From assembly GCA_951406725.2 (NCBI GenBank), contig OX597841.1, forward strand, positions 22,754,001 to 22,818,000: a stretch of 64,000 nucleotides of DNA, given 5' to 3'. The stretch is from Octopus vulgaris. Taxonomy: Eukaryota. A model generated the notes under the pieces. The model did no database searches. It was not told where the DNA came from and was given only the letters and a program-made list of their open reading frames with translations. A program made the position numbers and the translations under genes. Below are positions 1-49,059 of this stretch, in pieces (within the stretch, counting starts at the first letter, position 1; each line of letters opens with the position of its first letter).

Positions 1-1743
1 GAAATACTGAATGAGCAATTCAAGAGTGTTTTCACTCCACCCCTTGGGCATCTCCAAATCACCAATCCAACTGACTTTTTTACCACTGCAGATATAAAAT
101 CAGAGGCGGCGACGATAGATTACATCGATATAAAGGAAGACGATGTAATCAAGGCTATAGATGAAATGAAAACAGACTCAGCTACTGGCCCCGATGGATT
201 CCCGGCAATCCTCCTAAAAGCATGTAAGAGAGTCCTAGCAAGACCACTGCAGTTCCTCTTTCAGAGCTTCCTTGCAGCTGGCAAACTTCCAAGAAAACTG
301 AAGGAAGGTAAAATATGCCCCATTCATAAAGGAGGTAGCAGAGCGGAAGCCAAGAACTACAGACCTATCTCTCTGACCTCACACATCAGCAAGGTCATGG
401 AACGAATAGTCAGAAGGAAGCTGATCACCTTCCTTGAAGAGAATGACTTGCTGCCCGACACCCAACATGGTTTCCGACCAGGGAGAAGCTGTTTAACTCA
501 GCTCCTACAACACTATGACTGGGTGCTGAAACGGCTGCTCAACCACTCAAATGTGGAAGTGATATATCTCGACTTTGCAAAGGCCTTTGATAAAGTCGAT
601 CATGGAATGATATGTCACAAACTGCGTGATCTCAACATAGTTGGAAAACTGGGAGAATGGCTCCATGACTTTCTGAAAGATAGAAGTCAGGTGGTAGTAG
701 CCAATGGGGCCACTTCCATTAACACGCAAATAGTGAGCGGTGTCCCGCAGGGCACTGTTCTGGGACCACTACTGTTCATAATGGCCCTCTCAGACATGCC
801 CTCAGCCACGCAGAGAGCCACGATCACAAGTTATGCAGATGATACAAAAGTTTCACAGGCAATACAGAACCCTGAGGACACTAAGCACCTGCAATGTGAG
901 CTGGACAAAATATACAAGTGGGCTGAAAAGAATAGCATGCAGTTCAATGCTGAAAAGTTTCAAGCTCTATACTATCAGCATGCAAAACTAAATGCAATAC
1001 CCAATGAATACACCGGACCCGGAGGAATAGCAATCCCAGAGGCACAATCAGTGCGTGACCTAGGTATTTACATGAGTGATGACGCGACCTTTCGTGTACA
1101 TGTTGCTAAATTGGCAATGAAATGTAGAAGACTGGCCGGATGGATCCTCAGAACCTTTAGAACAAGAGAACAAGAAACCATGATGGTCCTCTGGAGGACA
1201 CTTGTCCTAAGCCACTTTGACTACTGCTCTCAGTTATGGTCACCATCCAGTGTCAAGTTGATCACAGAGCTCGAGGCGATCCAACGTAGCTACACGAAGA
1301 AGATAGCCTCTATGCAGAATGTAAGCTACTGGGAAAGACTGAAGAGATTAAAACTGTATTCCCTGGAGCGTAGGCGGGAAAGATATGCCATAATATACAT
1401 CTGGAAGATCCTGGAGGGACGTGTCCTAAACTTTGGCATCGAGAGTTACGCAAATGCCAGAACTGGGCGCCACTGCGTGGTGCCTAGGACTCCAAACTCG
1501 CCATCAAGATGTAGGACAAGATTCTGTGATAGCCTGGGCTTCCGAGGCCCACAGCTCTTCAATATCCTCCCGAAGAACCTGAGAGACCTGCATGGGGTGG
1601 ATGCAGATGTCTTTAAAATGAAACTGGATCTCTTCCTGTCAGGTGTCCCAGATGAACCAACTTCACGGCAGGAGGTGCAGATGAGGGCAGCTGCATCGAA
1701 CTCTCTCATGCACCAAATGGCAGTTGCTAAAAAGCTTTCGTGA
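1..1743 (+). CDS. LINE ORF2, reverse transcriptase and C-terminal domain (frame open from window start)
   Basis: Motifs GPDG, NYRPISLTS, QHGFRPGRSC, YLDFAKAFDKVDH, GVPQGTVLGPLLF, YADDT, and the CR1-type C-terminus YCSQLWSP..LYSLERRR. Confidence 0.92.
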   Translation, partial: EILNEQFKSVFTPPLGHLQITNPTDFFTTADIKSEAATIDYIDIKEDDVIKAIDEMKTDSATGPDGFPAILLKACKRVLARPLQFLFQSFLAAGKLPRKLKEGKICPIHKGGSRAEAKNYRPISLTSHISKVMERIVRRKLITFLEENDLLPDTQHGFRPGRSCLTQLLQHYDWVLKRLLNHSNVEVIYLDFAKAFDKVDHGMICHKLRDLNIVGKLGEWLHDFLKDRSQVVVANGATSINTQIVSGVPQGTVLGPLLFIMALSDMPSATQRATITSYADDTKVSQAIQNPEDTKHLQCELDKIYKWAEKNSMQFNAEKFQALYYQHAKLNAIPNEYTGPGGIAIPEAQSVRDLGIYMSDDATFRVHVAKLAMKCRRLAGWILRTFRTREQETMMVLWRTLVLSHFDYCSQLWSPSSVKLITELEAIQRSYTKKIASMQNVSYWERLKRLKLYSLERRRERYAIIYIWKILEGRVLNFGIESYANARTGRHCVVPRTPNSPSRCRTRFCDSLGFRGPQLFNILPKNLRDLHGVDADVFKMKLDLFLSGVPDEPTSRQEVQMRAAASNSLMHQMAVAKKLS

Positions 1744-1835
1744 AGTAAAACCAAGTAGCAACACCAAATGGCGGTGCCCCAGCATGGCCACAGCTCATAA
1801 GCTGAAACTAGAATCAATCGATCAATCAATCAATC
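1..1835 (+). mobile_element. LINE copy 1 (CR1/L2-group non-LTR retrotransposon), 3' part
   Basis: RT ORF followed by a short 3' UTR ending in an (AATC)n tail. Confidence 0.92.
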
Positions 1836-1857
1836 ATGTCTCCAAAAAAGATTTTTC

Positions 1858-2056
1858 GTTTCATGTTCGTCTCTGTTGCGTTGCATTCTTTCCTTCTGTG
1901 GCTGGCTGATTCGGAGCGGATCTCAGAATTGAACGGCCAAAATCTGCGATGAGGGATCAGTTTCTGACTGAAGAATGAAGGCTTTGAATGACCCGTTTGT
2001 CTTTTGTTCGTCCCTTCGTGTATTTCACGTTATTTATTTATGTAAATGTTTATTAT
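1858..2056. repeat. ~200-bp direct repeat X, downstream type
   Basis: gtttcatgttcgtctctg...cacgttatttattta; copies at 6260, 7477, 11923, 13113, 15890, 17101 and a partial copy at 18802. Confidence 0.9.
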
Positions 2057-2712
2057 ATATATATATATATTATACATATATATATATATGTGTATGTATG
2101 TATATATGTATGTATGTATGTATGTATATATATATATGTGTGTATGTATATATATATGTGTGTGTGTATGTATATATATATATGTGTGTGTGTGTATGTA
2201 TATATGTGTGTGTATGTATATATGTATGTGTGTGTGTATGTATATATATATATGTGTGTATGTATATATATGTGTGTTTGTGTGTGTATGTATATATATG
2301 TGTGTGTGTGTGTAAGTATATACATGTGTGTTTGTGTGTGTGTGTATGTATATATGTGTGTGTGTGTGTATGTATATATATGTGTGTGTGTGCATGTATA
2401 TATATGTGTGTGTGTATGTGTATATATGCGTGTGTGTATGTATATATATATATATATGTTATTATTTATTTATCTAAAGGCTTATTATATACATATTGTT
2501 TTGGTGTTCTCTTTTGTGTTAAATATATATGTGTGTGTGTGTATATATATATATATATGTTATTATTTATTTATCTAAAGGTTTATTATATACATATATA
2601 TATATATGTGTGTATGTATATATATGTGTGTGTGTATGTGTATATATATATATATATATGTGTTATTATTTAATTATGCAAGTTCTCAAATGTTATTATA
2701 TACATATATATA
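2057..2712. repeat. Compound (TA)/(TG) microsatellite spacer (truncated)
   Basis: Dinucleotide runs punctuated by gttattatttatttatctaaagg. Confidence 0.95.
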
Positions 2713-5700
2713 TAGGAGGAGTGAAACAAAGGGACTGAAACAACTCAGGACCATAGGGGAAGGGAACCGCAAAAGATGGAAACAAACAGCGCACACGGGT
2801 GTGTAGGTTCTACCTGAGAGGTTCCTGCTGGCATGGAAAGCAAGGTGCAGGCTGCCGCTTTGCACATCGGGGACCCTGCCACAGAGACACGAGGCAGATG
2901 GACAAACCATCAACACAAGGAAAAAGGATGGACCACGCACCACCTGCCCCAAAGCGGAGGTACGCAGATGTTGTGCATGCCACAAACCGCCAACATGATG
3001 TTGTCGAAAGGGCAGCTGCTGAGCAACAATCTTTTTTGTGCATGGCACAAAAGATTGTACAGCAGCTGACCTGGCTTCATCAAACCCAAGCCCGCAGGTG
3101 GGACTACCCACTATATACAAGACCACCACAGCAAACAGACCCAGGATGGACACCGCCGGCAACAACGTACACCTCACCTCGATGCTCCTACTGAACATCA
3201 GAGGGCTGCAAACACTCAGTAACAGGACAAAAATCCCGTTCCTGACAGACTTTGTTGCATGCAATCAAGCCTTATGCATAGCACTTACGGAAACACACCT
3301 GAAACCGGACATAGCAGATGCGGAGTTACACATACCACAGTATGCTGTACTACGGACCGACAGAAAAGAAAGGAGTCATGGAGGTGTTGCTATGTACATC
3401 CGTGAGGACCTCACACCCCAGGTCCTCTTGTCATACTCAAACTCGGTGTGTGACACACTAATTGTACATATTAGGCAACTTGATGTAGTTGTGTGTGCTA
3501 CATATCGCCCTCCAGATGCCCCAAGCCATGTGGGCAAGTTTGAAGACTGCCTTATAAAAATAGAAGAAGTTCTAACCACATTAGAACAACACATAAGTGT
3601 ACTTCTTATGGGAGACTTCAATCTGCCCAGTGTCAGATGGCCCGAGGGCCTTTCTCTCCCAGGAATGACAAGATGTGAACGAGGACAGGCGAGGTCCCTC
3701 CTGAACCTCATCAACACCCTGTACATGGAGCAGGTAATACTCCAACCAACCAGGGCAGGTAACACACTGGATCTCTGCTTCACAAATGACATGGATCTCA
3801 TCCATAATGTAAAAGTGACACCGACACTACTCTCGGATCACAACATGATAGAGCTGACCAAAAGAGTACGGGCCAAAAGAGAGCACGGACATGCAGCCTA
3901 CAAGAAACCCTCAGAATCTTTCCAGCTTGAACTACCATAAGGCAAACTGGAAACATATTGAGAAAGAGATCCTCAAACAAAACTGGCCTAAATGTCTCTC
4001 CTCGCCAGACATCGACGTGAAACTTCAACAATTCATGTCTGTAATGCAAGCCATATGCTACAAATGTGTCCCAGAGAGAAAGGCCACTGTACACAAGAAC
4101 AAAATCCCCAGAGAGAGGAAAATTTTAATGAGACGGCGTACAAAATTTTCAAATCGCCTAAGCAAACAGATTGAAAGCAGTGAAAAGTCCCGCCTAAAAA
4201 TAAAACTGTTGGAAATCGAAAAATGTCTGCAACTCTCTCATGAAAAAGAAAGAGCAGACAAAGAAGCCTGGGCTATAGACAACATAAAATCTAACCCCAG
4301 AGCTTTCTACAGGTATGCCAAAGAAACAGCTATGGTGCACTGTAGAATAGGGCCACTCCTCGAAAAGGATGGCACACTTACAAGTAAACCAATGAGGGTA
4401 AGTGAAATACTGAATGAGCAATTCAAGAGTGTTTTCACTCCACCCCTTGGGCATCTCAAATCACCAATCCAACTGACTTTTTTTACCACTGCAGATATAA
4501 AATCAGAGGCGGCGACGATAGATTACATCGATATAAAGGAAGACGATGTAATCAAGGCTATAGATGAAATGAAAACAGACTCAGCTACTGGCCCCGATGG
4601 ATTCCCGGCAATCCTCCTAAAAGCATGTAAGAGAGTCCTAGCAAGACCACTGCAGTTCCTCTTTCAGAGCTTCCTTGCAGCTGGCAAACTTCCAAGAAAA
4701 CTGAAGGAAGGTAAAATATGCCCCATTCATAAAGGAGGTAGCAGAGCGGAAGCCAAGAACTACAGACCTATCTCTCTGACCTCACACATCAGCAAGGTCA
4801 TGGAACGAATAGTCAGAAGGAAGCTGATCACCTTCCTTGAAGAGAATGACTTGATGCCCGACACCCAACATGGTTTCCGACCAGGAGAAGCTGTTTAACT
4901 CAGCTCCTACAACACTATGACTGGGTGCTGAAACGGCTGCTCAACCACTCAAATGTGGAAGTGATATATCTCGACTTTGCAAAGGCCTTTGATAAAGTCG
5001 ATCATGGAATGATATGTCACAAACTGCGTGATCTCAACATAGTTGGAAAACTGGGAGAATGGCTCCATGACTTTCTGAAAGATAGAAGTCAGGTGGTAGT
5101 AGCCAATGGGGCCACTTCCATTAACACGCAAATAGTGAGCGGTGTCCCGCAGGGCACTGTTCTGGGACCACTACTGTTCATAATGGCCCTCTCAGACATG
5201 CCCTCAGCCACGCAAAGAGCCACGATCACAAGTTATGCAGATGATACAAAAGTTTCACAGGCAATACAGAACCCTGAGGACACTAAGCACCTGCAATGTG
5301 AGCTGGACAAAATATACAAGTGGGCTGAAAAGAATAGCATGCAGTTCAATGCTGAAAAGTTTCAAGCTCTATACTATCAGCATGCAAAACTAAATGCAAT
5401 ACCCAATGAATACACCGGACCCGGAGGAATAGCAATCCCAGAGGCACAATCAGTGCGTGACCTAGGTATTTACATGAGTGATGACGCGACCTTTCGTGTA
5501 CATGTTGCTAAATTGGCAATGAAATGTAGAAGACTGGCCGGATGGATCCTCAGAACCTTTAGAACAAGAGAACAAGAAACCATGATGGTCCTCTGGAGGA
5601 CACTTGTCCTAAGCCACTTTGATTACTGCTCTCAGTTATGGTCACCATCCAGTGTCAAGTTGATCACAGAGCTCGAGGCGATCCAACGTAGCTACACGAA

Positions 5701-6237
5701 GAAGATAGCCTCTATGCAGAATGTAAGCTACTGGGAAAGACTGAAGAGATTAAAACTGTATTCCCTGGAGCGTAGGCGGGAAAGATATGCCATAATATAC
5801 ATCTGGAAGATCCTGGAGGGACGTGTCCTAAACTTTGGCATCGAGAGTTACGCAAATGCCAGAACTGGGCACCACTGCGTGGTGCCTAGGACTCCAAACT
5901 CGCCATCAAGATGTAGGACAAGATTCTGTGATAGCCTGGGCTTCCGAGGCCCACAGCTCTTCAATATCCTCCCGAAGAACCTGAGAGACCTGCATGGGGT
6001 GGATGCAGATGTCTTTAAAATGAAACTGGATCTCTTCCTGTCAGGTGTCCCAGATGAACCAACTTCACGGCAGGAGGTGCAGATGAGGGCAGCTGCATCG
6101 AACTCTCTCATGCACCAAATGGCAGTTGCTAAAAAGCTTTCGTGAAGTAAAACCAAGTAGCAACACCAAATGGCGGTGCCCCAGCATGGCCACAGCTCAT
6201 AAGCTGAAACTAGAATCAATCGATCAATCAATCAATC
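2713..6237 (+). mobile_element. LINE copy 2, 5'-truncated within ORF1
   Basis: Matches copy 3 from ~2763 onward; 2713-2762 is a garbled version of ORF1 sequence; (AATC)n tail. Confidence 0.9.
3182..6145 (+). pseudogene. LINE ORF2 (APE endonuclease + RT), frameshifted
   Basis: APE motifs NIRGL, LTETHL, GGVAMY, YRPP, GDFN, LDLCF, SDHN. Frameshifts near 3860-3900 and 4884, plus a compensating indel pair at ~4457/4484. Confidence 0.88.
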
Positions 6238-6259
6238 ATGTCTCCAAAAAAGATTTTTC

Positions 6260-6453
6260 GTTTCATGTTCGTCTCTGTTGCGTTGCATTCTTTCCTTCTG
6301 TGGCTGGCTGATTCGGAGCGGATCTCAGAATTGAACGGCCGAAATCTGCGATGAGGGATCAGTTTCTGACTGAAGAATGAAGGCTTTGAATGACCCGTTT
6401 GTCTTTTTGTTCGTCCCTTCGTGTATTTCACGTTATTTATTTATGTAAATGTT

Positions 6454-6497
<44 letters not shown>

Positions 6498-6504
6498 ATG
6501 TATG

Positions 6505-6535
<31 letters not shown>

Positions 6536-7235
6536 ATATATATGTGTGTATGTATATATATATATGTGTGTGTGTATGTATATATATATATGTGTGTGTG
6601 TGTATGTATATATGTGTGTGTATGTATATATGTATGTGTGTGTGTATGTATATATATATATGTGTGTATGTATATATATGTGTGTTTGTGTGTGTATGTA
6701 TATATATGTGTGTGTGTGTGTGTAAGTATATACATGTGTGTTTGTGTGTGTGTGTATGTATATATGTGTGTGTGTGTGTATGTATATATATGTGTGTGTG
6801 TGCATGTATATATATATGTGTGTGTGTATGTGTATATATGCGTGTGTGTATGTATATATATATATATATGTTATTATTTATTTATCTAAAGGCTTATTAT
6901 ATACATATATATATATATGTGTGTGTGTGTATATATATATATGTTATTATTTATTTATCTAAAGGTTTATTATATACATATATATATATATGTGTATGTA
7001 TATATATGTGTGTGTGTATGTGTATATATATATATATATGTGTTATTATTTAATTATCTAAAAGTTATTATATACATATATATATATATGTATGTGTGTA
7101 TGTATATATGTGTGTGTGTGTGTATGTATATATGTTTGTGTGTGCATGTATATATATGTGTGTGTGTATGTATATATATATATATATGTTATTATTTATT
7201 TATCCAAAGGTTTATTATATACATATATATATATA

Positions 7236-7268
<33 letters not shown>

Positions 7269-7678
7269 GTTATTATTTATTTATCTAAAGGTTTATTATA
7301 TACATATATATATATATGTATGTGTGTATGTATATATATGTGTGTGTGTATGTATATATATATATATATATGTTATTATTTATTTATGTAAAGTTTTATT
7401 ATATACATATATATATATATGTATGTGTGTATGTATATATATGTGTGTGTGTGTATGTATATATATGTGTGTGTGTGTTTCATGTTCGTCTCTGTTGCGT
7501 TGCATTCTTTCCTTCTGTGGCTGGCTGATTCGGAGCGGATCTCAGAATTAAACAGCCGAAATCTGCGATGAGGGATCAGTTTCTGACTGAGGATGAAGGC
7601 TTTGAATGACCCGTTTGTCTTTTTGTTCGTCCCTTCGTGTATTTCACGTTAGTTATTTATGTAAAGGTTTATTATATA
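6260..7678. repeat. X (downstream type) + ~1-kb TA/TG spacer + X (upstream type)
   Basis: X at 6260-6460 and 7477-7678 with microsatellite between. Confidence 0.92.
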
Positions 7679-8220
7679 TTTCGCAGCGTACGTGCATAAT
7701 AACTTCTTTATGTTTATCATATCAAAACCCCTGCACGATGTCTTTAAACTATTTTCTTTCCTTCGCCATTGCTTCGTTGCCAAATTGTTTTGGCGCCTTT
7801 TTCTCCCAGCCTCTCTGATTCCTTCTCTCCCTCTCTCTCTTGATCACTGCTTCTTCTCTGATTCCTTCTCTCCCTCTCTCTCTCTCGGTCACTGCTTCTG
7901 TCCTCGCCTTCTACCCTCCTTGGTCCCCTCTCTCTTAGCCCCTCCTCTCTCTTACCCTCTTGCGACTTGCTGCCTCAGCCATTCTCTTTCCATCGGCCAC
8001 TTGTTCAACATGTGTCTTATCACCGAAATGGTAATTATTTTTCCACGCTTGCTGATATTGTTTTTGTGTCTCTCTTTTTGTGTTAAAGCCATAGGGCGCC
8101 TGTGTCATCCATGTTTTTAACCGTTACCGGTCGCACATTGGCGCACTTGATGCCATCTTTGAGAACGAGCGGGGCAAAGATGGCAAGAATGGAGACGATG
8201 AAAGAAGTCACCCCCACCTG

Positions 8221-8856
8221 GTGGATTCCCGGGAGGAGGTTTTGAGTGAGAAACCTGCCCGGGTAGTGATCCCAGGTGCAAGTTCTCCAACCGGCAGCAA
8301 GGGCCATGGAGACGGAGAACCCGGTGAAGAGGTAGAGGGAGGAGGAAGAACTAAAAGAAGGACTGGAAGAGCTAAAGGAAAAGCTCAAGCAGGACCAAAG
8401 GGTGAAACAACCAGGAATAGAAGTGGAACCGCAAAAGATGGAAACAAACAGCGCACACGGGTGTGTAGGTTCTACCTGAGAGGTTCCTGCTGGCATGGAA
8501 AGCAAGGTGCAGGCTGCCGCTTTGCACATCGGGGACCCTGCCACAGAGACACGAGGCAGATGGACAAACCATCAACACAAGGAAAAAGGATGGACCACGC
8601 ACCACCTGCCCCAAAGCGGAGGTACGCAGATGTTGTGCGTGCCACAAACCGCCAACATGATGTTGTCGAAAGGGCAGCTGCTGAGCAACAATCTTTTTTG
8701 TGCATGGCACAAAAGATTGTACAGCAGCTGACCTGGCTTCATCAAACCCAAGCCCGCAGGTGGGACTACCCACTATATACAAGACCACCACAGCAAACAG
8801 ACCCAGGATGGACACCGCCGGCAACAACGTACACCTCACCTCGATGCTCCTACTGA
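8221..8856 (+). CDS. LINE ORF1: basic G/K/R-rich protein with a CCCH-type zinc finger
   Basis: CRFYLRGSCWHGKQGAGCRFAH = C-x7-C-x8-C-x3-H. The frame is open from 8095, the start codon is uncertain, and the stop overlaps the ORF2 ATG at 8844. Confidence 0.7.
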   Translation: MDSREEVLSEKPARVVIPGASSPTGSKGHGDGEPGEEVEGGGRTKRRTGRAKGKAQAGPKGETTRNRSGTAKDGNKQRTRVCRFYLRGSCWHGKQGAGCRFAHRGPCHRDTRQMDKPSTQGKRMDHAPPAPKRRYADVVRATNRQHDVVERAAAEQQSFLCMAQKIVQQLTWLHQTQARRWDYPLYTRPPQQTDPGWTPPATTYTSPRCSY

Positions 8857-11809
8857 ACATCAGAGGGCTGCAAACACTCAGTAACAGGACAAAAATCCCG
8901 TTCCTGAGAGACTTTGTTGCATGCAATCAAGCCTTATGCATAGCACTTACGGAAACGCACCTGAAACCGGACATAGCAGATGCGGAGTTACACATACCAC
9001 AGTATGCTGTACTACGGACCGACAGAAAAGAAAGGAGTCATGGAGGTGTTGCTATGTACATCCGTGAGGACCTCACACCCCAGGTCCTCTTGTCATACTC
9101 AAACTCGGTGTGTGACACACTAATTGTACATATTAGGCAACTTGATGTAGTTGTGTGTGCTACATATCGCCCTCCAGATGCCCCAAGCCATGTGGGCAAG
9201 TTTGAAGACTGCCTTATAAAAATAGAAGAAGTTCTAACCACATTAGAACAACACATAAGTGTACTTCTTATGGGAGACTTCAATCTGCCCAGTGTCAGAT
9301 GGCCCGAGGGCCTTTCTCTCCCAGGAATGACAAGATGTGAACGAGGACAGGCGAGGTCCCTCCTGAACCTCATCAACACCCTGTACATGGAGCAGGTAAT
9401 ACTCCAACCAACCAGGGCAGGTAACACACTGGATCTCTGCTTCACAAATGACATGGATCTCATCCATAATGTGAAAGTGACACCGACACTACTCTCGGAT
9501 CACAACATGATAGAGCTGACCAAAAGAGTACGGGCCAAAAGAGAGCACGGACATGCAGCCTACAAGAAACCCTCAGAATCTTTCCAGCTTGAACTACCAT
9601 AAGGCAAACTGGAAACAAATTGAGAAAGAGATCCTCAAACAAAACTGGCCTAAATGTCTCTCCTCGCCAGACATCGACGTGAAACTTCAACAATTCATGT
9701 CTGTAATGCAAGCCATATGCTACAAATGTGTCCCAGAGAGAAAGGCCACTGTACACAAGAACAAAATCCCCAGAGAGAGGAAAATTTTAATGAGACGGCG
9801 TACAAAATTTTCAAATCGCCTAAGCAAACAGATTGAAAGCAGTGAAAAGTCCCGCCTAAAAATAAAACTGTTGGAAATCGAAAAATGTCTGCAACTCTCT
9901 CATGAAAAAGAAAGAGCAGACAAAGAAGCCTGGGCTATAGACAACATAAAATCTAACCCCAGAGCTTTCTACAGGTATGCCAAAGAAACAGCTATGGTGC
10001 ACTGTAGAATAGGGCCACTCCTCGAAAAGGATGGCACACTTACAGGAAAACCAATGAGGGTAAGTGAAATACTGAATGAGCAATTCAAGAGTGTTTTCAC
10101 TCCACCCCTTGGGCATCTCCAAATCACCAATCCAACTGACTTTTTTTACCACTGCAGATATAAAATCAGAGGCGGCGACGATAGATTACATCGATATAAA
10201 GGAAGACGATGTAATCAAGGCTATAGATGAAATGAAAACAGACTCAGCTACTGGCCCCGATGGATTCCCGGCAATCCTCCTAAAAGCATGTAAGAGAGTC
10301 CTAGCAAGACCACTGCAGTTCCTCTTTCAGAGCTTCCTTGCAGCTGGCAAACTTCCAAGAAAACTGAAGGAAGGTAAAATATGCCCCATTCATAAAGGAG
10401 GTAGCAGAGCGGAAGCCAAGAACTACAGACCTATCTCTCTGACCTCACACATCAGCAAGGTCATGGAACGAATAGTCAGAAGGAAGCTGATCACCTTCCT
10501 TGAAGAGAATGACTTGCTGCCCGACACCCAACATGGTTTCCGACCAGGGAGAAGCTGTTTAACTCAGCTCCTACAACACTATGACTGGGTGCTGAAACGG
10601 CTGCTCAACCACTCAAATGTGGAAGTGATATATCTCGACTTTGCAAAGGCCTTTGATAAAGTCGATCATGGAATGATATGTCACAAACTGCGTGATCTCA
10701 ACATAGTTGGAAAACTGGGAGAATGGCTCCATGACTTTCTGAAAGATAGAAGTCAGGTGGTAGTAGCCAATGGGGCCACTTCCATTAACACGCAAATAGT
10801 GAGCGGTGTCCCGCAGGGCACTGTTCTGGGACCACTACTGTTCATAATGGCCCTCTCAGACATGCCCTCAGCCACGCAGAGAGCCACGATCACAAGTTAT
10901 GCAGATGATACAAAAGTTTCACAGGCAATACAGAACCCTGAGGACACTAAGCACCTGCAATGTGAGCTGGACAAAATATACAAGTGGGCTGAAAAGAATA
11001 GCATGCAGTTCAATGCTGAAAAGTTTCAAGCTCTATACTATCAGCATGCAAAACTAAATGCAATACCCAATGAATACACCGGACCCGGAGGAATAGCAAT
11101 CCCAGAGGCACAATCAGTGCGTGACCTAGGTATTTACATGAGTGATGACGCGACCTTTCGTGTACATGTTGCTAAATTGGCAATGAAATGTAGAAGACTG
11201 GCCGGATGGATCCTCAGAACCTTTAGAACAAGAGAACAAGAAACCATGATGGTCCTCTGGAGGACACTTGTCCTAAGCCACTTTGACTACTGCTCTCAGT
11301 TATGGTCACCATCCAGTGTCAAGTTGATCACAGAGCTCGAGGCGATCCAACGTAGCTACACGAAGAAGATAGCCTCTATGCAGAATGTAAGCTACTGGGA
11401 AAGACTGAAGAGATTAAAACTGTATTCCCTGGAGCGTAGGCGGGAAAGATATGCCATAATATACATCTGGAAGATCCTGGAGGGACGTGTCCTAAACTTT
11501 GGCATCGAGAGTTACGCAAATGCCAGAACTGGGCGCCACTGCGTGGTGCCTAGGACTCCAAACTCGCCATCAAGATGTAGGACAAGATTCTGTGATAGCC
11601 TGGGCTTCCGAGGCCCACAGCTCTTCAATATCCTCCCGAAGAACCTGAGAGACCTGCATGGGGTGGATGCAGATGTCTTTAAAATGAAACTGGATCTCTT
11701 CCTGTCAGGTGTCCCAGATGAACCAACTTCACGGCAGGAGGTGCAGATGAGGGCAGCTGCATCGAACTCTCTCATGCACCAAATGGCAGTTGCTAAAAAG
11801 CTTTCGTGA
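8844..11809 (+). pseudogene. LINE ORF2 APE-RT (~985 aa if two +1 shifts are corrected)
   Basis: ORF-track pieces 8700-9602, 9553-10230 and 10076-11809. The second shift is a T7 run at 10141 where copy 1 has T6. Confidence 0.9.
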
Positions 11810-11922
11810 AGTAAAACCAAGTAGCAACACCAAATGGCGGTGCCCCAGCATGGCCACAGCTCATAAGCTGAAACTAGAATCAATCGATCAATCAATCAAT
11901 CATGTCTCCAAAAAGATTTTTC

Positions 11923-12166
11923 GTTTCATGTTCGTCTCTGTTGCGTTGCATTCTTTCCTTCTGTGGCTGGCTGATTCGGAGCGGATCTCAGAATTGAACG
12001 GCCGAAATCTGCGATGAGGGATCAGTTTCTGACTGAAGAATGAAGGCTTTGAATGACCCGTTTGTCTTTTTGTTCGTCCCTTCGTGTATTTCACGTTATT
12101 TATTTATGTAAATGTTTATTATATATATATATATATAATATATATATATATATATGTGTATGTATG

Positions 12167-12197
<31 letters not shown>

Positions 12198-12873
12198 ATA
12201 TATATATGTGTGTATGAATATATATATGTGTGTGTGTATGTATATATGTGTGTGTATGTATATATGTATGTGTGTGTGTATGTATATATATATATGTGTG
12301 TATGTATATATATGTGTGTTTGTGTGTGTACGTATATATATGTGTGTGTGTGTGTGTAAGTATATATATGTGTGTTTGTGTGTGTGTGTATGTATATATG
12401 TGTGTGTGTGTGTATGTATATATATGTGTGTGTGTGCATGTATATATATGTGTGTGTGTATGTGTATATATGCGTGTGTGTATGTATATATATATATATA
12501 TGTTATTATTTATTTATCTAAAGGCTTATTATATACATATATATATATATGTGTGTGTGTGTATATATATATATATATGTTATTATTTATTTATCTAAAG
12601 GTTTATTATATACATATATATATATATGTGTGTATGTATATATATGTGTGTGTGTATGTGTATATATATATATATATGTGTTATTATTTAATTATCTAAA
12701 AGTTATTATATACATATATATATATATGTATGTGTGTATGTATATATGTGTGTGTGTGTGTATGTATATATGTTTGTGTGTGCATGTATATATATGTGTG
12801 TGTGTATGTATATATATATATATATGTTATTATTTATTTATCCAAAGGTTTATTATATACATATATATATATA

Positions 12874-12904
<31 letters not shown>

Positions 12905-13315
12905 GTTATTATTTATTTATCTAAAGGTTTATTATATACATATATATATATATGTATGTGTGTATGTATATATATGTGTGTGTGTATGTATATATATATA
13001 TATATATGTTATTATTTATTTATGTAAAGGTTTATTATATACATATATATATATATGTATGTGTGTATGTATATATATGTGTGTGTGTGTATGTATATAT
13101 ATGTGTGTGTGTGTTTCATGTTCGTCTCTGTTGCGTTGCATTCTTTCCTTCTGTGGCTGGCTGATTCGGAGCGGATCTCAGAATTAAACAGCCGAAATCT
13201 GCGATGAGGGATCAGTTTCTGACTGAGGATGAAGGCTTTGAATGACCCGTTTGTCTTTTTGTTCGTCCCTTCGTGTATTTCACGTTATTTATTTATGTAA
13301 AGGTTTATTATATAT
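11923..13315. repeat. X + TA/TG spacer + X
   Basis: Same structure as 6260-7678. Confidence 0.92.
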
Positions 13316-13316
13316 T

Positions 13317-15868
13317 TCGCAGCGTACGTGCATAATAACTTCTTTATGTTTATCATATCAAAACCCCTGCACGATGTCTTTAAACTATTTTCTTTCCTTC
13401 GCCATTGCTTCGTTGCCAAATTGTTTTGGCGCCTTTATCTCCCAGCCTCTCTGATTCCTTCTCTCCCTCTCTCTCTTGATCACTGCTTCTTCTCTGATTC
13501 CTTCTCTCCCTCTCTCTCTCTCGGTCACTGCTTCTGTCCTCGCCTTCTACCCTCCTTGGTCCCCTCTCTCTCTTAGCCCCTCCTCTCTCTTACCCTCTTG
13601 CGACTTGCTGCCTCAGCCATTCTCTTTCCATCGGCCACTTGTTCAACATGTGTCTTATCACCGAAAAGGTAATTATTTTTCCACGCTTGCTGATATTGTT
13701 TTTGTGTCTCTCTTTTTGTGTTAAAGCCATAGGGCGCCTGTGTCATCCATGTTTTTAACCGTTACCGGTCGCACATTGGCGCACTTGATGCCATCTTTGA
13801 GAACGAGCGGGGCAAAGATGGCAAGAATGGAGACGATGAAAGAAGTCACCCCCACCTGGTGGATTCCCGGGAGGAGGTTTTGAGTGAGAAACCTGCCCGG
13901 AAAGTGATCCCAGGTGCAAGTTCTCCAACCGGCAGCAAGGGCCATGGAGACGGAGAACCCGGTGAAGAGGTAGAGGGAGGAGGAAGAACTAAAAGAAGGA
14001 CTGGAAGAGCTAAAGGAAAAGCTCAAGCAGGACCAAAGGGTGAAACAACCAGGAATAGAAGTGGAACCGCAAAAGATGGAAACAAACAGCGCACACGGGT
14101 GTGTAGGTTCTACCTGAGAGGTTCCTGCTGGCATGGAAAGCAAGGTGCAGGCTGCCGCTTTGCACATCGGGGACCCTGCCACAGAGACACGAGGCAGATG
14201 GACAAACCATCAACACAAGGAAAAAGGATGGACCACGCACCACCTGCCCCAAAGCGGAGGTACGCAGATGTTGTGCGTGCCACAAACCGCCAACATGATG
14301 TTGTCGAAAGGGCAGCTGCTGAGCAACAATCTTTTTTGTGCATGGCACAAAAGATTGTACAGCAGCTGACCTGGCTTCATCAAACCCAAGCCCGCAGGTG
14401 GGACTACCCACTATATACAAGACCACCACAGCAAACAGACCCAGGATGGACACCGCCGGCAACAACGTACACCTCACCTCGATGCTTCTACTGAACATCA
14501 GAGGGCTGCAAACAATCAGTAACAGGACAAAAATCCCGTTCCTGACAGACTTTGTTGCATGCAATCAAGCCTTATGCATAGCACTTACGGAAATGCACCT
14601 GAAACCGGACATAGCAGATGCGGAGTTACACATACCACAGTATGCTGTACTACGGACCGACAGAAAAGAAAGGAGTCATGGAGGTGTTGTTATGTACATC
14701 CGTGAGGACGTCACACCCCAGGTCCTCTTGTCATACTCAAACTCGGTGTGTGACACACCAATTGTACATATTAGGCAACTTGATGTAGTTGTGTGTGCTA
14801 CATATCGCCCTCCAGATGCCCCAAGCCATGTGGGCAAGTTTGAAGACTGCCTTATAAAAATAGAAGAAGTTCTAACCACATTAGAACAACACATAAGTGT
14901 ACTTCTTATGGGAGACTTCAATCTGCCCAGTGTCAGATGGCCCGAGGGCCTTCCTCTCCCAGGAATGACAAGATGTGAACGAGGACAGGCGTTGTCCCTC
15001 CTGAACCTCATCAACACCCTGTACATGGAGCAGGTAATACTCCAATCAACCAGGGCAGGTAACACACTGGATCTCTGCTTCACAAATGACATGGATCTCA
15101 TCTATAATGTGAAAGTGACACCGACACTACTCTCGGATCACACATGATAGAGCTGACCAAAAGAGTACGGGCCAAAAGAGAGCACGGACATGCAGCCTAC
15201 AAGAAACCCTCAGAATCTTTCCAGCTTGAACTACCATAAGGCAAACTGGAAACAAATTGAGAAAGAGATCCTCAAACAAAACTGGCCTAAATGTCTCTCC
15301 TCGCCAGACATCGACGTGAAACTTCAACAATTCATGTCTGTAATGCAAGCCATATGCTACAAATGTGTCCCAGAGAGAAAGGCCACTGTACACAAGAACA
15401 AAATCCCCAGAGAGAGGAAAATTTTAATGAGACGGCGTACAAAATTTTCATCGAGAGTGAAAACTTTGGCATCGAGAGTTACGCAAATGCCAGAACTGGG
15501 CGCCACTGCGTGGTGCCTTGGACTCCAAACTCGCCATCAAGATGTAGGACAAGATTCTGTGATAGCCTGGGCTTCCGAGGCCCACAGCTCTTCAATATCC
15601 TCCCGAAGAACCTGAGAGACCTGCATGGGGTGGATGCAGATGTCTTTAAAATGAAACTGGATCTCTTCCTGTCAGGTGTCCCAGATGAACCAACTTCACG
15701 GCAGGAGGTGCAGATGAGGGCAGCTGCATCGAACTCTCTCATGCACCAAATGGCAGTTGCTAAAAAGCTTTCGTGAAGTAAAACCAAGTAGCAACACCAA
15801 ATGGCGGTGCCCCAGCATGGCCACAGCTCATAAGCTGAAACTAGAATCAATCGATCAATCAATCAATC
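13317..15868 (+). mobile_element. LINE copy 4 with ~1.68-kb internal deletion removing the RT domain
   Basis: ORF1 at 13859-14494 and APE present; sequence jumps at 15450/15461 from the linker to the C-terminal region. Confidence 0.9.
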
Positions 15869-15889
15869 ATGTCTCCAAAAACATTTTTC

Positions 15890-16861
15890 GTTTCATGTTC
15901 GTCTCTGTTGCGTTGCATTCTTTCCTTCTGTGGCTGGCTGATTCGGAGCGGATCTCAGAATTGAACGGCCGAAATCTGCGATGAGGGATCAGTTTCTGAC
16001 TGAAGAATGAAGGCTTTGAATGACCCGTTTGTCTTTTTGTTCGTCCCTTCGTGTATTTCACGTTATTTATTTATGTAAATGTTTATTATATATATATATA
16101 TATTATATATATATATATATATGTGTATGTATGTATATATGTATGTATGTATGTATGTATATATATATGTGTGTATGTATATATATATGTGTGTGTGTAT
16201 GTATATATATATATGTGTGTGTGTGTATGTATATATGTGTGTGTATGTATATATGTATGTGTGTGTGTATATATATATATATGTGTGTATGTATATATAT
16301 GTGTGTTTGTGTGTGTATGTATATATATGTGTGTATGTGTGTGTAAGTATATACATGTGTGTTTGTGTGTGTGTGTATGTATATATGTGTGTGTGTGTGT
16401 ATGTATATATATGTGTGTGTGTGTGATGTATATATATATGTGTGTGTGTATGTGTATATATGCGTGTGTGTATGTATATATATATATATATGTTATTATT
16501 TATTTATCTAAAGGCTTATTATATACATATATATATATATGTGTGTGTGTGTATATATATATATGTTATTATTTATTTATCTAAAGGTTTATTATATACA
16601 TATATATATATATGTGTGTATGTATATATATGTGTGTGTGTATGTGTATATATATATATATATGTGTTATTATTTAATTATCTAAAAGTTATTATATACA
16701 TATATATATATATGTATGTGTGTGTATGTATATATGTGTGTGTGTGTGTATGTATATATGTTTGTGTGTGCATGTATATATATGTGTGTGTGTATGTATA
16801 TATATATATATATGTTATTATTTATTTATCCAAAGGTTTATTATATACATATATATATATA

Positions 16862-16892
<31 letters not shown>

Positions 16893-17303
16893 GTTATTAT
16901 TTATTTATCTAAAGGTTTATTATATACATATATATATATATGTATGTGTGTATGTATATATATGTGTGTGTGTATGTATATATATATATATATATGTTAT
17001 TATTTATTTATGTAAAGGTTTATTATATACATATATATATATATGTATGTGTGTATGTATATATATGTGTGTGTGTGTATGTATATATATGTGTGTGTGT
17101 GTTTCATGTTCGTCTCTGTTGCGTTGCATTCTTTCCTTCTGTGGCTGGCTGATTCGGAGCGGATCTCAGAATTAAACAGCCGAAATCTGCGATGAGGGAT
17201 CAGTTTCTGACTGAGGATGAAGGCTTTGAATGACCCGTTTGTCTTTTTGTTCGTCCCTTCGTGTATTTCACGTTATTTATTTATGTAAAGGTTTATTATA
17301 TAT
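15890..17303. repeat. X + TA/TG spacer + X
   Basis: Same structure as 6260-7678. Confidence 0.92.
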
Positions 17304-17304
17304 T

Positions 17305-18794
17305 TCGCAGCGTACGTGCATAATAACTTCTTTATGTTTATCATATCAAAACCCCTGCACGATGTCTTTAAACTATTTTCTTTCCTTCGCCATTGCTTCG
17401 TTGCCAAATTGTTTTGGCGCCTTTATCTCCCAGCCTCTCTGATTCCTTCTCTCCCTCTCTCTCTTGATCACTGCTTCTTCTCTGATTCCTTCTCTCCCTC
17501 TCTCTCTCTCGGTCACTGCTTCTGTCCTCGCCTTCTACCCTCCTTGGTCCCCTCTCTCTCTTAGCCCCTCCTCTCTCTTACCTCTTGGACTTGCTGCCTC
17601 AGCCATTCTCTTGCCATCGGCCACTTGTTCAGCTTCTCTTTCCATCGGCCATGTGTCTTATCACCGAAAAGGTAATTATTTTTCCACGCTTGCTGATATT
17701 GTTTCTGTGTCTCTCTTTTTGTGTTAAAGCCATAGGGCGCCTGTGTCATCCATGTTTTTAACCGTTACCGGTCGCACATTGGCGCACTTGATGCCATCTT
17801 TGAGAACGAGCGGGCAAAGATGGCAAGAATGGAGACGATGAAAGAAGTCACCCCCACCTGGTGGATTCCCGGGAGGAGGTTTTGAGTGAGAAACCTGCCC
17901 GGAACTGTGATCCCAGGTGCAAGTTCTCAAACCGGCAGCAAGGGCCATGGAGACAGAGAACCCGGTGAAGAGGTAGAGGGAGGAGGAAGAACTAAAAGAA
18001 GGACTGGAAGAGCTAAAGGAAAAGCTCAAGCAGAAGGCCAAAGGGTGAAACAACCAGGAATAGAAGTGGAACCGCAAAAGATGGAAACAAACAGCGCACA
18101 CAGGTGTGTAGGTTCTACCTGAGAGGTTTCTGCTGGCATGGAAAGCAAGGTGCAGGCTGCCGCTTTGCACATCGGGGACCCTGCCACAGAGACACGAGGC
18201 AGATGGACAAACCATCAACACAAGGAAAAAGGATGGACCACGCACCACCTGCCCCAAAGCGGAGGTACGCAGATGTTGTGCGTGCCACAAACCGCCAACA
18301 TGATGTTGTCGAAAGGGCAGCTGCTGAGCAACAATCTTTTTTGTGCATGGCACAAAAGATTGTACAGCAGCTGACCTGGCTTCATCAAACCCAAGCCCGC
18401 AGGTGGGACTACCCACTATATACAAGACCACCACAGCAAACAGACCCAGGATGGACACCGCCGGCAACAACGTACACCTCACCTCGATGCTCCGACTGAA
18501 CATCAGAGGGCTGCAAACACTCAGTAACAGGACAAAAATCCCGTTCCTGAGAGACTTTGTTGCATGCAATCAAGCCTTATGCATAGCACTTACGGAAACG
18601 CACCTGAAACCGGACATAGCAGATGCGGAGTTACACATACCACAGTATGCTGTACTACGGACCGACAGAAAAGAAAGGAGTCATGGAGGTGTTGCTATGT
18701 ACATCCGTGAGGACCTCACACCCCAGGTCCTCTTGTCATACTCAAACTCGGTGTGTGACACACTAATTGTACATATTAGGCAACTTGATGTAGT
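17305..18794 (+). mobile_element. LINE copy 5, 3'-truncated in the APE domain
   Basis: Ends at ..caacttgatgtagt, then a partial downstream-type X at 18802-18891. Confidence 0.88.
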
Positions 18795-18885
18795 CTCAGT
18801 GTGAGGGATCAGTTTCTGACTGAAGAATGAAGGCTTTGAATGACCCATTTGTCTTTTTGTTCCCCTTCGTGTATTTCACGTTATT

Positions 18886-20770
18886 TATTTTTAAATAAAA
18901 GAATTTATAAAGCGATTCTCCCAAGGACCAAGGTTTGTTGGAAGCCTTGGGATGGAGAAGATGGTATGTTGAAGGGTTGTTTATGGTGAATCAAGTTCGT
19001 TTACAAACAGACGAATGTCCTGTTCAAGTAAAAGATTTTGATGTCTCTGCGGAAGGAAAGACAGTTGTGTGTGAAAAAGCCAATAATGGAAATGTTAAAA
19101 TATTCGATGAAGACGGCCAGTTGCTATGTCACAGAAATGCTGCAAGTTTAGTTGGTGGTGTGTGTTTTACACAAGAATCACACATAATGGCCACGGTTCC
19201 TAAAAGGAAAGAAATATTTCAACTGAATGGAGAAGATTTGCAGACATCTCAAGTTTGGTCGAGTCTCATCCCTTATGGTGTAATAGGGAGAAAAGTGGCG
19301 GGTATTTACTGATGTGAACATATTGAATTGATTGAATGTCATTGCATAAAGATTGATGGGGACCAAGTGAACATTCTGGAATCTGTGTCATTATTAAATC
19401 TTGATTCTGGTCTTCGTTTCCCTTCCATTACATCTGAAACGAACAAGGAAATATTCAGTAATGAATTAATTAATAAATTGGAATACAGAGGAGGAGATGG
19501 AGATGGAGGAGGAAGAAGAAGAGGTAAATCAGGTGAAATAATTGGTAAAGGTAGATTAAAGGTGAGATGTAGTAATTACCTAGCGGAGATTAATTATTCA
19601 GGAATTGATGAAATATCAGTGTGGAGACTTCCATATAGGACAGCAATGGTCCCTTTTTCCATTCCTGCATTCGAGGAACCTGTTGATTATGATTATTGGG
19701 ACATTAGGGACCGGAATAGTAAACTAATTAAGTTAGATGAGAATGTGAGTGTGTTGATGTTTCGAGAAAGTGTCACATTAATCAGAACAACAACAACAAC
19801 AGTGGACATACTTCAACATGAACAACAACAACGACCACCACTGGACATATGTCGGTGGACAGAGGAATGTTTCATTGTCGCCTTTGGGAGAGAAATGAGG
19901 GTCTTTAACAGGGATCTCCAGTTCAAGATTTTGAAAAACCATGCGGAAGGAAAGACAGTTGTGTGTGTGTGAAATACTAGCCAATAATGGAAATGTTATA
20001 AATATTCGATGAAGACGACAATCAACTCGTGTGTGGTGTGTGTTCATTATATTAGAGATATACACTCAAGAAGAGAGACATGAGGAATACCTAAAAGAAA
20101 ATGGAAGAAACAACTGAATGGAGAAGATTTGCAGACATCTCGACAGTTTGGTCGAGTCTCATCCCTTATTATGTGGATAGGGAGAAAAGATGGCGGGTAT
20201 TTACTGATGTGAACATATTGAATTGATTGAATGTCATTGCATAAAGATTGATGGGGACCAAGTGAACATTCTGGAAGGTCTGTCAGTCATTATTAAATCT
20301 TGATTCTGGTCTTCGTTTCACATCCATTACATCTGAAACGAACAAGGAAATGTTCAGTTGTTTTGAGGAGGGAGATGGAGGTGGAGGAGGAGTCTGGAGA
20401 TTGGGAAGTTTTGTGTTTTGTGGAATGGTTCAGGGAAAAGTCTTTGGTGAGGAGGATAAGAATAGAAGGAGGAAGGTTTTATGGTCGGGAATATTATATT
20501 GCAAGACCTCGTCTGACCATAATTGGTGAATGTGTTTATATAACAGAGATCATGAACAATATTTACGAAATACCTCGACATATTGAAGAGGAAACATCTG
20601 AAGATTATGAGATCCTGGGATTAAAAGATAATCCAAAATATTTACTCCTCAGACGGGATGATAATGAAGTCTTTGCAGTTCTTGGTTTGGATGTTTCAGA
20701 CAATTCTTTGATGGTTTTTGGAATTATTCCTGGACGTCAATCTTTTGCTTTCTTTTATTTTGACAAATAA
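18886..20770 (+). pseudogene. Disrupted intronless gene, probably a beta-propeller (NHL/TRIM-like) protein
   Basis: ORFs 18935-19312 and 19328-19972 are in one frame, split by a TGA. Blade-like segments (DFDVSAEGKTVVCEKANNGNVKIFDEDGQLL; GGVCFTQESHIMATVP). C-terminal ORF stops at 20770 overlapping AATAAA. Paralog at 36.0-36.5 kb. Confidence 0.55.
19943..20360 (+). repeat. Indel-rich internal duplicate of 19047-19460
   Basis: gcggaaggaaagacagttgtgtgtg...acgaacaaggaaat repeated with many small indels. Confidence 0.8.
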
Positions 20771-21024
20771 ATATTTCCAGAAATATTAAACTTCAATCTT
20801 CTTATTATTATTGTTGTTGTTGTAAATGGCTTCGCCCGGGAATCGAACCTGCATCGCATACATTACATTCTACACACTAACACTTATTGTTGTAACATTC
20901 CTCAAGACTCTCTCTTTTGTGTGTGTGTGTATATTTATATACAGTATGTGTACATGTGTTTATATATATATACACACATATTTAGGAATGTATGTATACA
21001 AATAAGGCTATAAGTATATATGTT

Positions 21025-21070
<46 letters not shown>

Positions 21071-21156
21071 TATATGCATGCATGTATGTATAGGAATGTC
21101 TGGTCCGAAACCAGAGACTTTCATAATCATTGATTCTCCATTAAAAGGCAGACGAC

Positions 21157-21510
21157 CAACAACAACAACAACAACAGCAGACGACAACCACCACCTCCGC
21201 CTCCATCATCATCGTCATCATCACCATCGTCATCACCATCATCATCATCAACATCACCACCACCATCATCGTCGTCATCAGCGTTGTGTGTGCGTGTGTG
21301 CAGTCTGCATCTGATAGTTTTTAACGTTTAATAAGAATAGATTGTTGTTGTTGTTGTTGTTGCAGTGACATTCCAACTGCACACACACACAAACATTGCC
21401 TTTCGTCCTCGTAGGGTTGTTGTTGTTGTTGTTGCAGTGACATTCCAACTGCACACACGCAAAAACATTGCCTTTCGTCCTCGTAGGGTTGTTGTTGTTG
21501 TTGTTGCTGT
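21157..21510. repeat. CAA/CAT/GTT trinucleotide repeats and a ~72-bp tandem duplication
   Basis: gcagtgacattccaactgcacacac..gtcctcgtagggttg occurs twice. Confidence 0.85.
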
Positions 21511-21789
21511 TGGGGATTCATAAAAAAAGAGAAGGACATTTTAAGAAGCATTCAGTAAAAGCTTTCCCATAGCTGGTCATTTTTCACGCTTAGAAATAGA
21601 AACCACTTTATTTTTCATATAAAATTTGAAGGACAATTTGCAAAGCATCCATGTCAAATATTGTCCTATAGATGGCCTAACATCATGCTAGAAATAACAG
21701 CCAAATACTCTGAAATTTGTATCGTTTTTCATAAAAAACGTGAAGGACACTTTTTGCAAGAAGCAACTCTAAAAATATTGTCCTGTGGC

Positions 21790-22860
21790 GGTTTTAAGTG
21801 TAAAATATTATAAAAGTATGCATCTATGAGTTTTATGTGTTTAAAAACATAGCAAAGACATGTGTGTATATGTAGATATATATAAATATACATGTGTATA
21901 AAGGTTCCTTTATGATGTATATGCTTCTTCTCTAATAACTTGCAGAGAAATGGATATTTTTCATGGAATTTCCTACAAATATGCTTCAGATGGTGTAGAT
22001 TCCGATTCTATGGGGATTTATTGGGAAAACTTTTTTTGTCTTTCATAACAAAGGCGAATCTTGTGAATTTTCTGAAACTGCTTTTCCCACCCAGGGACAA
22101 ACGGTTTTCACAATGAATTCCGATTTAATCGGAATCTAAACCATCTGAAGAATATTTGTAGTGTAAAATATTCATTAAAAAATGCATCTATGGTTTTGTG
22201 AAAAAACATTGTGAGGAAGACATGTGTGTATATGTAGCATATATACAGATATATACCCCCATGTGTATAAAGGTTCCTTTATGATGTATATGCTTCTCGT
22301 AACTTGCAGAAAAATAGATATTTTTTGAAGGAAACTTTCAACAAATAATCGCTTCAGATCCTATAGATTGAGTTTTTGTAAGGATTTGTTGGGAAAACAT
22401 TTTCTTTCAAACAAAGGGTTGTGAATTTTCTGAAAGGAGTTTCGCAAAATTCACACAACCAGACATTTAATCGGAATCTAAACCATCTGAAGAAATATTT
22501 GTAGGAAATTTCATTAAAAAATATTTAATTTTGTGAAATTTGTGAGGAAGCAAATTCGGCATAACTACAGATGTATAAACCGACTTTGTTTCCTCATAAC
22601 TTGCAGAAAAATGGATATGTTTTGAAGGAAACTTTCAACAAATAATCGCTTAGATCCTATAATTGAGTTTTTGTAAGGATTTGTTGGAAAAACATTTTTT
22701 GCGGAAAGGAGATTTCGCAAAATTCACACAACCAGACATTTTCCTCCTCATAAATTTCAGGAAATGGGTATTTTTGAATGAAATTTTATAGATTAATAAC
22801 TTTCAAACGATGTAGATTACGATTAAAAAGAAATTTGTTGGCAAAATGTTTTGTAAGAGG
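21790..22860. repeat. AT-rich degenerate tandem repeat region
   Basis: Recurrent aacttgcaga(g/a)aaatggatatttt, atcggaatctaaaccatctgaaga and tcgcaaaattcacacaaccagacatt blocks. Confidence 0.6.
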
Positions 22861-22911
22861 TCGAGGGAAAATGTGTGTGATTTAAGGGAGATTTGGCTGT
22901 TGTTTCTAGCA

Positions 22912-23670: not shown

Positions 23671-23687
23671 ATGCATGTATGTATGTA

Positions 23688-23973
<286 letters not shown>

Positions 23974-42929: not shown

Positions 42930-42963
<34 letters not shown>

Positions 42964-43050
42964 TGAAAAAGAAAAGGCGTGGCAGTGTCTGAACTTTCAG
43001 AATATTCCATCCCCATGGAGAGTGATTTTAAGTTAAATTTTTTCCTGTTT
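42245..43050 (+). repeat. 400-bp tandem duplication
   Basis: ctgtgtttagccctttgtggg at 42251 and 42651; near-identical. Confidence 0.92.
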
Positions 43051-43334
43051 TTCTTTTACATTTTCAATATTGTTTCTTTGAATTTATTTTAAAGCAATAA
43101 ATATGTTTCTTTTGAAAGTTGTTCTTCATTTCATCATTTTGAATAAGCAGCCAGAAATTTGATAACAGTTAAATTATAATCATTGTATGCACACCATACA
43201 AAACTGGTGCACGGGAATGCTGCATTTCTTGACGTCATATTCTGAGACATACATACATACAGGCATACATATGACTGGGATGCCAACTTCTAAGCCAAAA
43301 AGCAGGTAATAAACAAACAGACAGACAGATAGAT

Positions 43335-49020: not shown

Positions 49021-49059
49021 ATTATTCGTTTATTTGTTTCGGTCATTTCAACAGGTAGG

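Follow-up and report, generated by a model that had tools for sequence, protein, structure and literature searches.

How does a multi-kilobase retrotransposon come to lie head to tail in a regular array? This question is raised by a stretch of 64,000 nucleotides from Octopus vulgaris (assembly GCA_951406725.2, 2.8 Gb; contig OX597841.1, hereafter C28, positions 22754001-22818000), referred to below as the window, in which segments of a long interspersed nuclear element (LINE) alternate with a repeat, X, and a microsatellite spacer. The initial annotation regarded the array as a macrosatellite of a complete LINE, amplified as a fixed cassette of about 5.64 kb. Our analysis points instead to a non-coding satellite that was interrupted by a single LINE insertion, after which the composite was multiplied by recombination at the DNA level and whole blocks were duplicated together with their flanks. 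We assign this history a probability of roughly 0.8.

The arrangement first described is largely borne out. Five co-oriented LINE segments fill window positions 1-18794, and four of these end in an identical (AATC)n tail joined to an identical flank (junctions 1836, 6238, 11902 and 15869), each such tail being followed by X, the spacer and a second X. Each unit, 5.66 kb in total, consists of 1.9 kb of satellite interrupted at one base by a LINE of 3.77 kb, and the fine structure of the spacer consists of six copies of the 3′ tip of X within TA/TG runs. The fixed period holds for the fetched arrays taken together, in which 31 of 39 periods measure 5.60-5.72 kb (median 5661 bp), and fails within the window, where the three periods are 4402, 5664 and 3967 bp and only one is of full length. 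Leftward, where a boundary remained to be located, the array continues for three further periods (5665, 5663 and 5664 bp) up to a 100-N gap (C28:22738410-22738509). The tail junction has 38 matches in the genome, its reversed control none. At the deletions in the window (2714/2727, 15450/15461 and 18794/18802) the joints are scrambled, and the right flank next to the window array differs from its paralogues by 39 gaps versus 3-5 mismatches in 1.2 kb. As these differences are mainly insertions and deletions, some of the window deletions may be assembly noise, and the window copy of the array is probably a noisy assembly stretch.

LINE-free arrays of the same satellite are present on contigs C16 (period ~1.65 kb), C27 and C31 (both ~1.3 kb), and X and the spacer are therefore part of the satellite, not of the LINE. 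The amplified entity is a pre-existing satellite and not, as had been proposed, the LINE. In the LINE-free units, the left arm of the satellite meets the right arm directly, with no letters gained or lost, and at C31:4.40-4.45 Mb both states occur side by side: 23 empty units, a LINE-bearing block and 2 empty units. Divergence of the satellite arms amounts to 0.6% among the filled C28 units and to 1.2-4.4% within the three larger empty arrays (a row for dispersed copies was dropped from this comparison, its pieces including unrelated flank). The lower divergence of the filled units suggests that the satellite came first and that the filled unit expanded last. Empty units that exist and are more diverse than the filled ones are a feature of a satellite with an amplified transposable element insertion. 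Two empty arrays on different contigs, L087 (C16:18.246 Mb) and L094 (C31:4.40 Mb), have identical beginnings, an inverted piece of the LINE and a 29-bp stub of the satellite, which indicates that empty arrays have also moved with their flank.

The LINE is a dead passenger of the array and an ordinary element elsewhere in the genome, where its 3′ end has 2002 matches and its 5′ region 287. Its second open reading frame (ORF2) encodes an APE endonuclease and a reverse transcriptase (RT), with matches to PF14529, PF03372 and PF00078 on an intact dispersed copy as well as on the window frames; ORF1 gives weak Myb-like and CCCH matches, and among named homologues of its protein the best match is that of Argonauta hians (57%). 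LINEs of the CR1 group, to which we take this family to belong from its motifs, have a 3′ microsatellite tail and make no target-site duplication. Here, the tail is (AATC)n, and filled and empty sites differ by the insert alone, no target-site duplication being present. The array LINE had been considered complete, but it is truncated and frameshifted. The first 59 of its 303 ORF1 codons and the 5′ untranslated region are lacking, at least 320 bp of the 5′ end are missing, and an unbroken ORF2 is found in none of 39 array copies (longest frame, 762 codons). All 20 dispersed copies fetched extend upstream of the start of the array copy, 16 of them through the 320 bp shown, and 9 keep a frame of at least 981 codons.

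Sequence comparison further separates the array copies from the dispersed ones. Thirty-five array copies on C28 and C31 differ from each other by 0.44% and from 14 dispersed copies by 2.5%, and have in common 23 diagnostic columns that are absent from these 14 copies; the LINE copy in the mixed array on C31 carries all 23. The identical satellite-LINE joint occurs 49 times, on C28 (42), C31 (6) and C15 (1) and on no other contig. One 5′ breakpoint combined with 23 common diagnostic columns suggests one insertion, from which the array LINEs likely stem. On C27, the TA spacer of the satellite harbours another insertion from this LINE family, independent of the first (L091:1130-2190; C27:25599092-25600186); this copy is 5′-complete, internally deleted and not amplified.

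The arrays are interstitial, at 6.8-10.6 and 22.7 Mb on a 29.2-Mb contig, and all units have the same 5′ breakpoint, at odds with the subtelomeric or HeT-A/TART-like setting that had been considered. A right flank is common to six C28 arrays, including that of the window, and a left flank to four (over up to 22.6 kb), at ~92-99.8% identity. The two arrays that have both flanks contain 10 and 6 tail junctions as assembled. Moreover, substitutions common to at least two units are seen at 55 columns, in mosaic combinations, and some unit variants follow position within the array: in three arrays, the first full unit has alleles in common with its counterparts. The mosaic combinations fit unequal exchange with gene conversion and speak against pure assembly stutter, and we infer that the unit spread by this route. 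Amplification at the DNA level, as opposed to independent insertions, is supported, as had been proposed, by the one breakpoint, the 23 columns and the mosaic variants. A 16-bp duplication at the satellite-LINE joint in the last unit of three arrays (C28:6823423, 9472157 and 10365946) is a marker of shared descent. In the left flank common to four arrays (L037:800-7700), the array is joined at its left end to pieces of what we take, from gag, protease, RT and integrase-like frames, to be a long terminal repeat (LTR) retroelement, with a CA-rich minisatellite.

The satellite in turn likely derives from a small non-coding mobile element. A 44-bp piece of X has 225 matches across the genome, and 51 of 57 fetched dispersed copies have the same 3′ tip, nearly always in (TA)n, with scattered 5′ ends. 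A sister subfamily (573 matches) behaves likewise, in that the monomer end is where 33 of 40 insertions terminate, and 15 of the 40 are longer than one monomer; a third family is represented by 1873 matches. The satellite unit equals a 1.3-mer of the 672-bp monomer plus its microsatellite. Among the dispersed copies there are 5′ inversions, 30-40-bp tails, truncated 5′ ends and partial tandems, which, together with the fixed 3′ end and the microsatellite target, are features of a non-autonomous Penelope-like element (PLE). The partner enzyme would accordingly have been Penelope-like, probably that of a Naiad. A PLE RT fragment beside one copy of the element led to a Neptune-like PLE family (L210-L238, L279-L298; 150 matches scored, 29 loci read and 20 3′ ends fetched), which is very young, with an RT and a GIY-YIG-like end, long open frames and many identical matches. 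Its 3′ end runs into (TA)n in one of two copies inspected.

Among other explanations, the one that survives best, though unlikely, is that the composite was retroposed as a multimer, a ribozyme-processed or circular satellite-plus-LINE RNA being copied by a Penelope-type enzyme into whole arrays in one step. The fixed-3′-end multimers dispersed by the parent element, the two motif copies in every unit and the array at C28:8.65 Mb, whose last part consists of empty units followed by a PLE-like tail and (TA)n, would all suit such an event. It does not account for the long flanks common to the arrays, for their common right end, which follows a deletion and falls ~15 bp short of the tip, or for a left end fused to an LTR-element piece; in addition, filled joints are found on three contigs only and the dispersed multimers have no spacer. 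It is quite unlikely that the satellite is a rolling-circle DNA element of the Helitron/Helentron type by which the LINE was captured. Such elements typically form tandem arrays with internal microsatellites, and a PIF1-like helicase remnant lies elsewhere in the window, whereas the dispersed copies, whose 5′ ends scatter and include inversions, whose 3′ end is fixed in (TA)n and whose RNA structure is conserved, fit reverse transcription. We consider it very unlikely that assembly stutter, named at the outset as what would refute the array, multiplied one or two real units, even though many arrays adjoin gaps and the window copy is rich in indels: the 55 shared-substitution columns, the position-bound variants among them and the two arrays with gap-free flanks on both sides argue against it, as do short-read contigs across the satellite-LINE joint in runs labelled with three organisms. 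Repeated targeting of the satellite site by the LINE family, in the manner of R1/R2 or Tx1-type elements, has the C27 insertion in its favour and can practically be dismissed, being already contradicted by the single breakpoint and the shared diagnostic columns, by the position of the C27 copy in the TA-rich spacer, off the site, and by the dispersed LINEs, which had been suggested for a genome-wide check and have the satellite left arm upstream in 0 of 20 copies and the right arm after the tail in 0 of 14 readable tails.

Several observations nevertheless weigh against the history that we propose, in which a satellite with one LINE insertion was amplified by recombination. Four of the six C28 arrays with the common right flank start at a 100-N gap, so that split or doubled assembly may have raised the count of loci, which is uncertain. 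Runs X23 and X24 of raw reads yielded only 0 and 13 reads, too few for depth, and no piece across the joint is listed for run X2, a result that carries no weight. The joint-crossing contigs have 17-29 letters on the short side and fall short of our rule of 31, one of them, with 29 letters on each side and zero differences, by very little. The mixed array on C31 is indel-rich around its LINE block, and dispersed-type or mixed alleles are seen in the LINEs that adjoin gaps on C15 and C20. Finally, no autonomous partner of the element was found, the one Neptune-like PLE family sharing no 3′ sequence with it.

X, the 3′ end of the element, contains a motif that resembles a scrambled hammerhead ribozyme; its cut-site block is present seven times in the window. 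Read together, the three subfamilies give the block order cut site, GAAA, CUGAAGA, that is, the S-G-C order, and lack no letter of the core. Between subfamilies, both strands of stems I and III and of the closing helix have changed, and in the third family stem III has lost one base on each strand. Of 65 motif sequences, 8 that were truncated or deleted were excluded from A1 and 2 more from A2. With the stem II strand placed upstream of the cut site, a five-helix model shows pairing in 94.1% of the 1384 cells (slid controls, 22-51%), and 4 pairs are changed on both sides. The plain type-SGC model, with stem II downstream, reaches 93.7% pairing in this genome, and the two models are inseparable by these pairing data. 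We prefer the upstream strand because the plain model requires a 5-letter insert, located between CUGAAGA and the downstream stem II strand, and misfits the Naiad ends. The motif also departs from type SGC in one defining feature: CUGANGA is not joined to stem II within the limit of 1-2 inserted letters, as either 5 letters intervene or the strand lies upstream.

Several tests speak against the motif. The covariation amounts to about three subfamily events, two-sided pair changes are no better than in shuffles (481 of 500), stem II shows no two-sided change within this genome, and nested folding reveals no unusual stability (z 0.04-1.29). Searches against Rfam returned no ribozyme and no hammerhead, only low-complexity miRNA and snoRNA matches below the cut-offs in the spacer; the type I/III hammerhead pattern has no match on either strand, and a genome pattern with a contiguous core gave 18 matches, none from this motif family. 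Neither the satellite nor the motif is reported in the literature searched, which comprised titles and abstract openings, with most subscription papers outside its scope. On balance, it is a tentative proposal, at somewhat less than even odds, that X would be an active hammerhead with a wiring outside the six published permutations, common to octopus Naiads, whose predicted cut would set the 5′ end of the RNA. A 33-bp tandem repeat of type I hammerhead core halves was met elsewhere, at C25:33.647 Mb (L195-L208).

The 5′ ends of the dispersed copies are consistent with the predicted cleavage. Of 57 ends, 17 start 0-14 nt after the predicted cut; the preceding 15 nt contain 2 starts and the next 14 nt contain 4, a pile-up with p = 4e-6 (17 of 24 ends within a 59-nt span). 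The 0-14-nt interval was picked when the first 17 loci had already been inspected; the 40 loci added later gave counts of 11, 1 and 4. Under the search pattern, ends can lie only upstream of monomer position 563. Of 38 ends in the sister subfamily, 9 lie at -3 to +15. Many ends are 9-13 nt past the predicted cut rather than on it, which leaves AT microhomology with the target, or stalling of the RT at a structure, as alternatives.

These observations would fit the following order of events. In the oldest step, a non-coding element of ~0.67 kb, whose copying in trans was likely the work of a Penelope-like enzyme, probably that of a Naiad, would have entered (TA)n as a partial tandem. One such insert and its microsatellite may then have become a satellite of 1.3-1.9 kb, in one unit of which an ordinary LINE would have landed once. 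The LINE-bearing unit would subsequently have spread, likely via unequal exchange and gene conversion, before segmental duplication scattered the array on C28. The predicted hammerhead would cut the RNA and thereby set the 5′ end of many short copies. Every earlier stage persists in the genome: the element as dispersed copies and as short multimers, the satellite without the LINE, the array with both kinds of unit, the filled array and the duplicated block. The array shows how a retrotransposon with no special property of its own can come to form a multi-kilobase 'macrosatellite'. Should the motif cut, the hammerhead fold would be connected in a way that is new, and this in an animal genome, and the motif would be a candidate for the ribozyme that Naiads are reported to lack. 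About a hundred ribozyme copies would in that case lie in the macrosatellite, cutting a read-through transcript into 1.2-kb spacer RNAs and 4.4-kb LINE-bearing RNAs, and the pile-up of 5′ ends would offer a possible readout of ribozyme activity from genomic DNA.

Table 1. Features of the array and its right flank, in window coordinates.
Feature	Position	Strand
LINE copy 1, 3′ part (RT, 3′ untranslated region, (AATC)n tail); 5′ part left of the window	1..1835	+
Satellite right arm (22-bp junction piece and X1) and shortened spacer	1837..2714	+
LINE copy 2; X2, satellite left arm and ~270 bp of LINE missing before it (real deletion or assembly noise)	2727..6237	+
Satellite right arm (junction piece and X1), as far as the dispersed element's fixed 3′ tip	6239..6462	+
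Hammerhead-like motif in scrambled order, cleavage predicted	6302..6391	+
Motif parts: stem II 5′ strand; predicted cut; GAAA; CUGAAGA	6302-6306; after 6324; 6341-6344; 6370-6376	+
Spacer: TA/TG microsatellite with six copies of the X 3′ tip, period ~73-79 bp in parts	6463..7476	+
X2: 5′-truncated preceding monomer (pseudo-LTR-like partial tandem) with second motif copy	7477..7679	+
Satellite left arm, the CT-rich body of the dispersed element; joined directly to the piece starting at 6239 where units lack the LINE	7680..8127	+
LINE copy 3, 3774 bp, 5′-truncated, ORF2 (APE and RT) frameshifted, no target-site duplication	8128..11901	+
Satellite unit (X1, spacer, X2, left arm)	11903..13765	+
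LINE copy 4, ~1.7 kb lost at 15450/15461	13766..15868	+
Satellite unit (X1, spacer, X2, left arm)	15870..17768	+
LINE copy 5, 5′ part only	17769..18794	+
Partial X at array end; same ending in five paralogous arrays	18802..18890	+
Segmental-duplication flank common to five other C28 arrays, at least to this end in the longest comparison	18891..33260	

Outside the array, the duplicated flank contains a broken, intronless frame at window positions 19024-20770, which is 448 codons long in a paralogue (L043:3871-5217). This frame has no Pfam match above the cut-off and unnamed Atlas neighbours, with a weak NHL lead at 0.89. An (AAT)n-type run of 1.3 kb occupies positions 27743-29046. Positions 42735-50008 and 54917-61960 form a duplication of ~7 kb at 95-96% identity with a PIF1-like helicase remnant, and its frames presumably include an L1/Tx1-type RT.

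Of the known systems, the HeT-A/TART telomeric arrays (mentioned in PMC5932611) also consist of head-to-tail, co-oriented non-LTR elements. Unlike these, the octopus array is not terminal, has a single breakpoint and contains a dead element likely copied at the DNA level. Type-SGC hammerheads (Eckert et al. 2023, PMC10085705) share with the motif the cut site, GAAA and CUGANGA in S-G-C order, all core letters and an extra closing helix, and were found by these authors in the genome of no known organism; they differ in that CUGANGA is directly joined to stem II, whereas here 5 extra letters intervene or, as is better supported, the strand lies upstream of the cut. Animal non-LTR retrozymes (PMC7229834; bioRxiv 10.64898/2026.07.22.740005) are similar in sequence organization, with non-coding tandem units bearing one ribozyme motif each, short dispersed multimers besides long arrays and a proposed PLE origin. 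They are, however, defined by a type I hammerhead, whereas the X motif has S-G-C order and is known here from DNA alone; assignment to the non-LTR retrozymes was rejected, as neither the type I pattern nor an Rfam hammerhead match was obtained.

The element itself is closer to Naiads. In Craig et al. 2021 (PMC8557442), 5′ truncation, partial tandems, inverted 5′ copies and a 30-40-bp tail are described for PLEs and a bias to (TA)n for Naiads, and the octopus element resembles Naiads, other PLEs and the non-autonomous Chlamys elements (such as MRC1) in these traits. The same paper reports no canonical hammerhead in Naiads and one octopus family flagged 'HHR_half_core'. Judged by eye, two published octopus Naiad consensus 3′ ends have the same five-helix wiring with other stem letters and the stem II partner upstream of the cut site, a likeness of architecture and not a sequence match; unlike Naiads, the element described here has no open reading frame.

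The closest precedent for the array as a whole is the R1 satellite of Drosophila, where, according to McGurk and Barbash 2018 (PMC5932611), transposable element insertions were amplified with the array. As in that case, one insertion in a tandem array has given rise to many copies, by inferred unequal exchange. In Drosophila, however, the array is itself the LINE, as R1 dimers with target-site duplications, while in the octopus the LINE is a passenger and its host a non-coding satellite. Since the rise of an insertion with its host array is already known, the 'LINE macrosatellite' of O. vulgaris is a new case of a known process rather than a telomeric LINE or one that amplifies itself, and its novel part is the motif in X.

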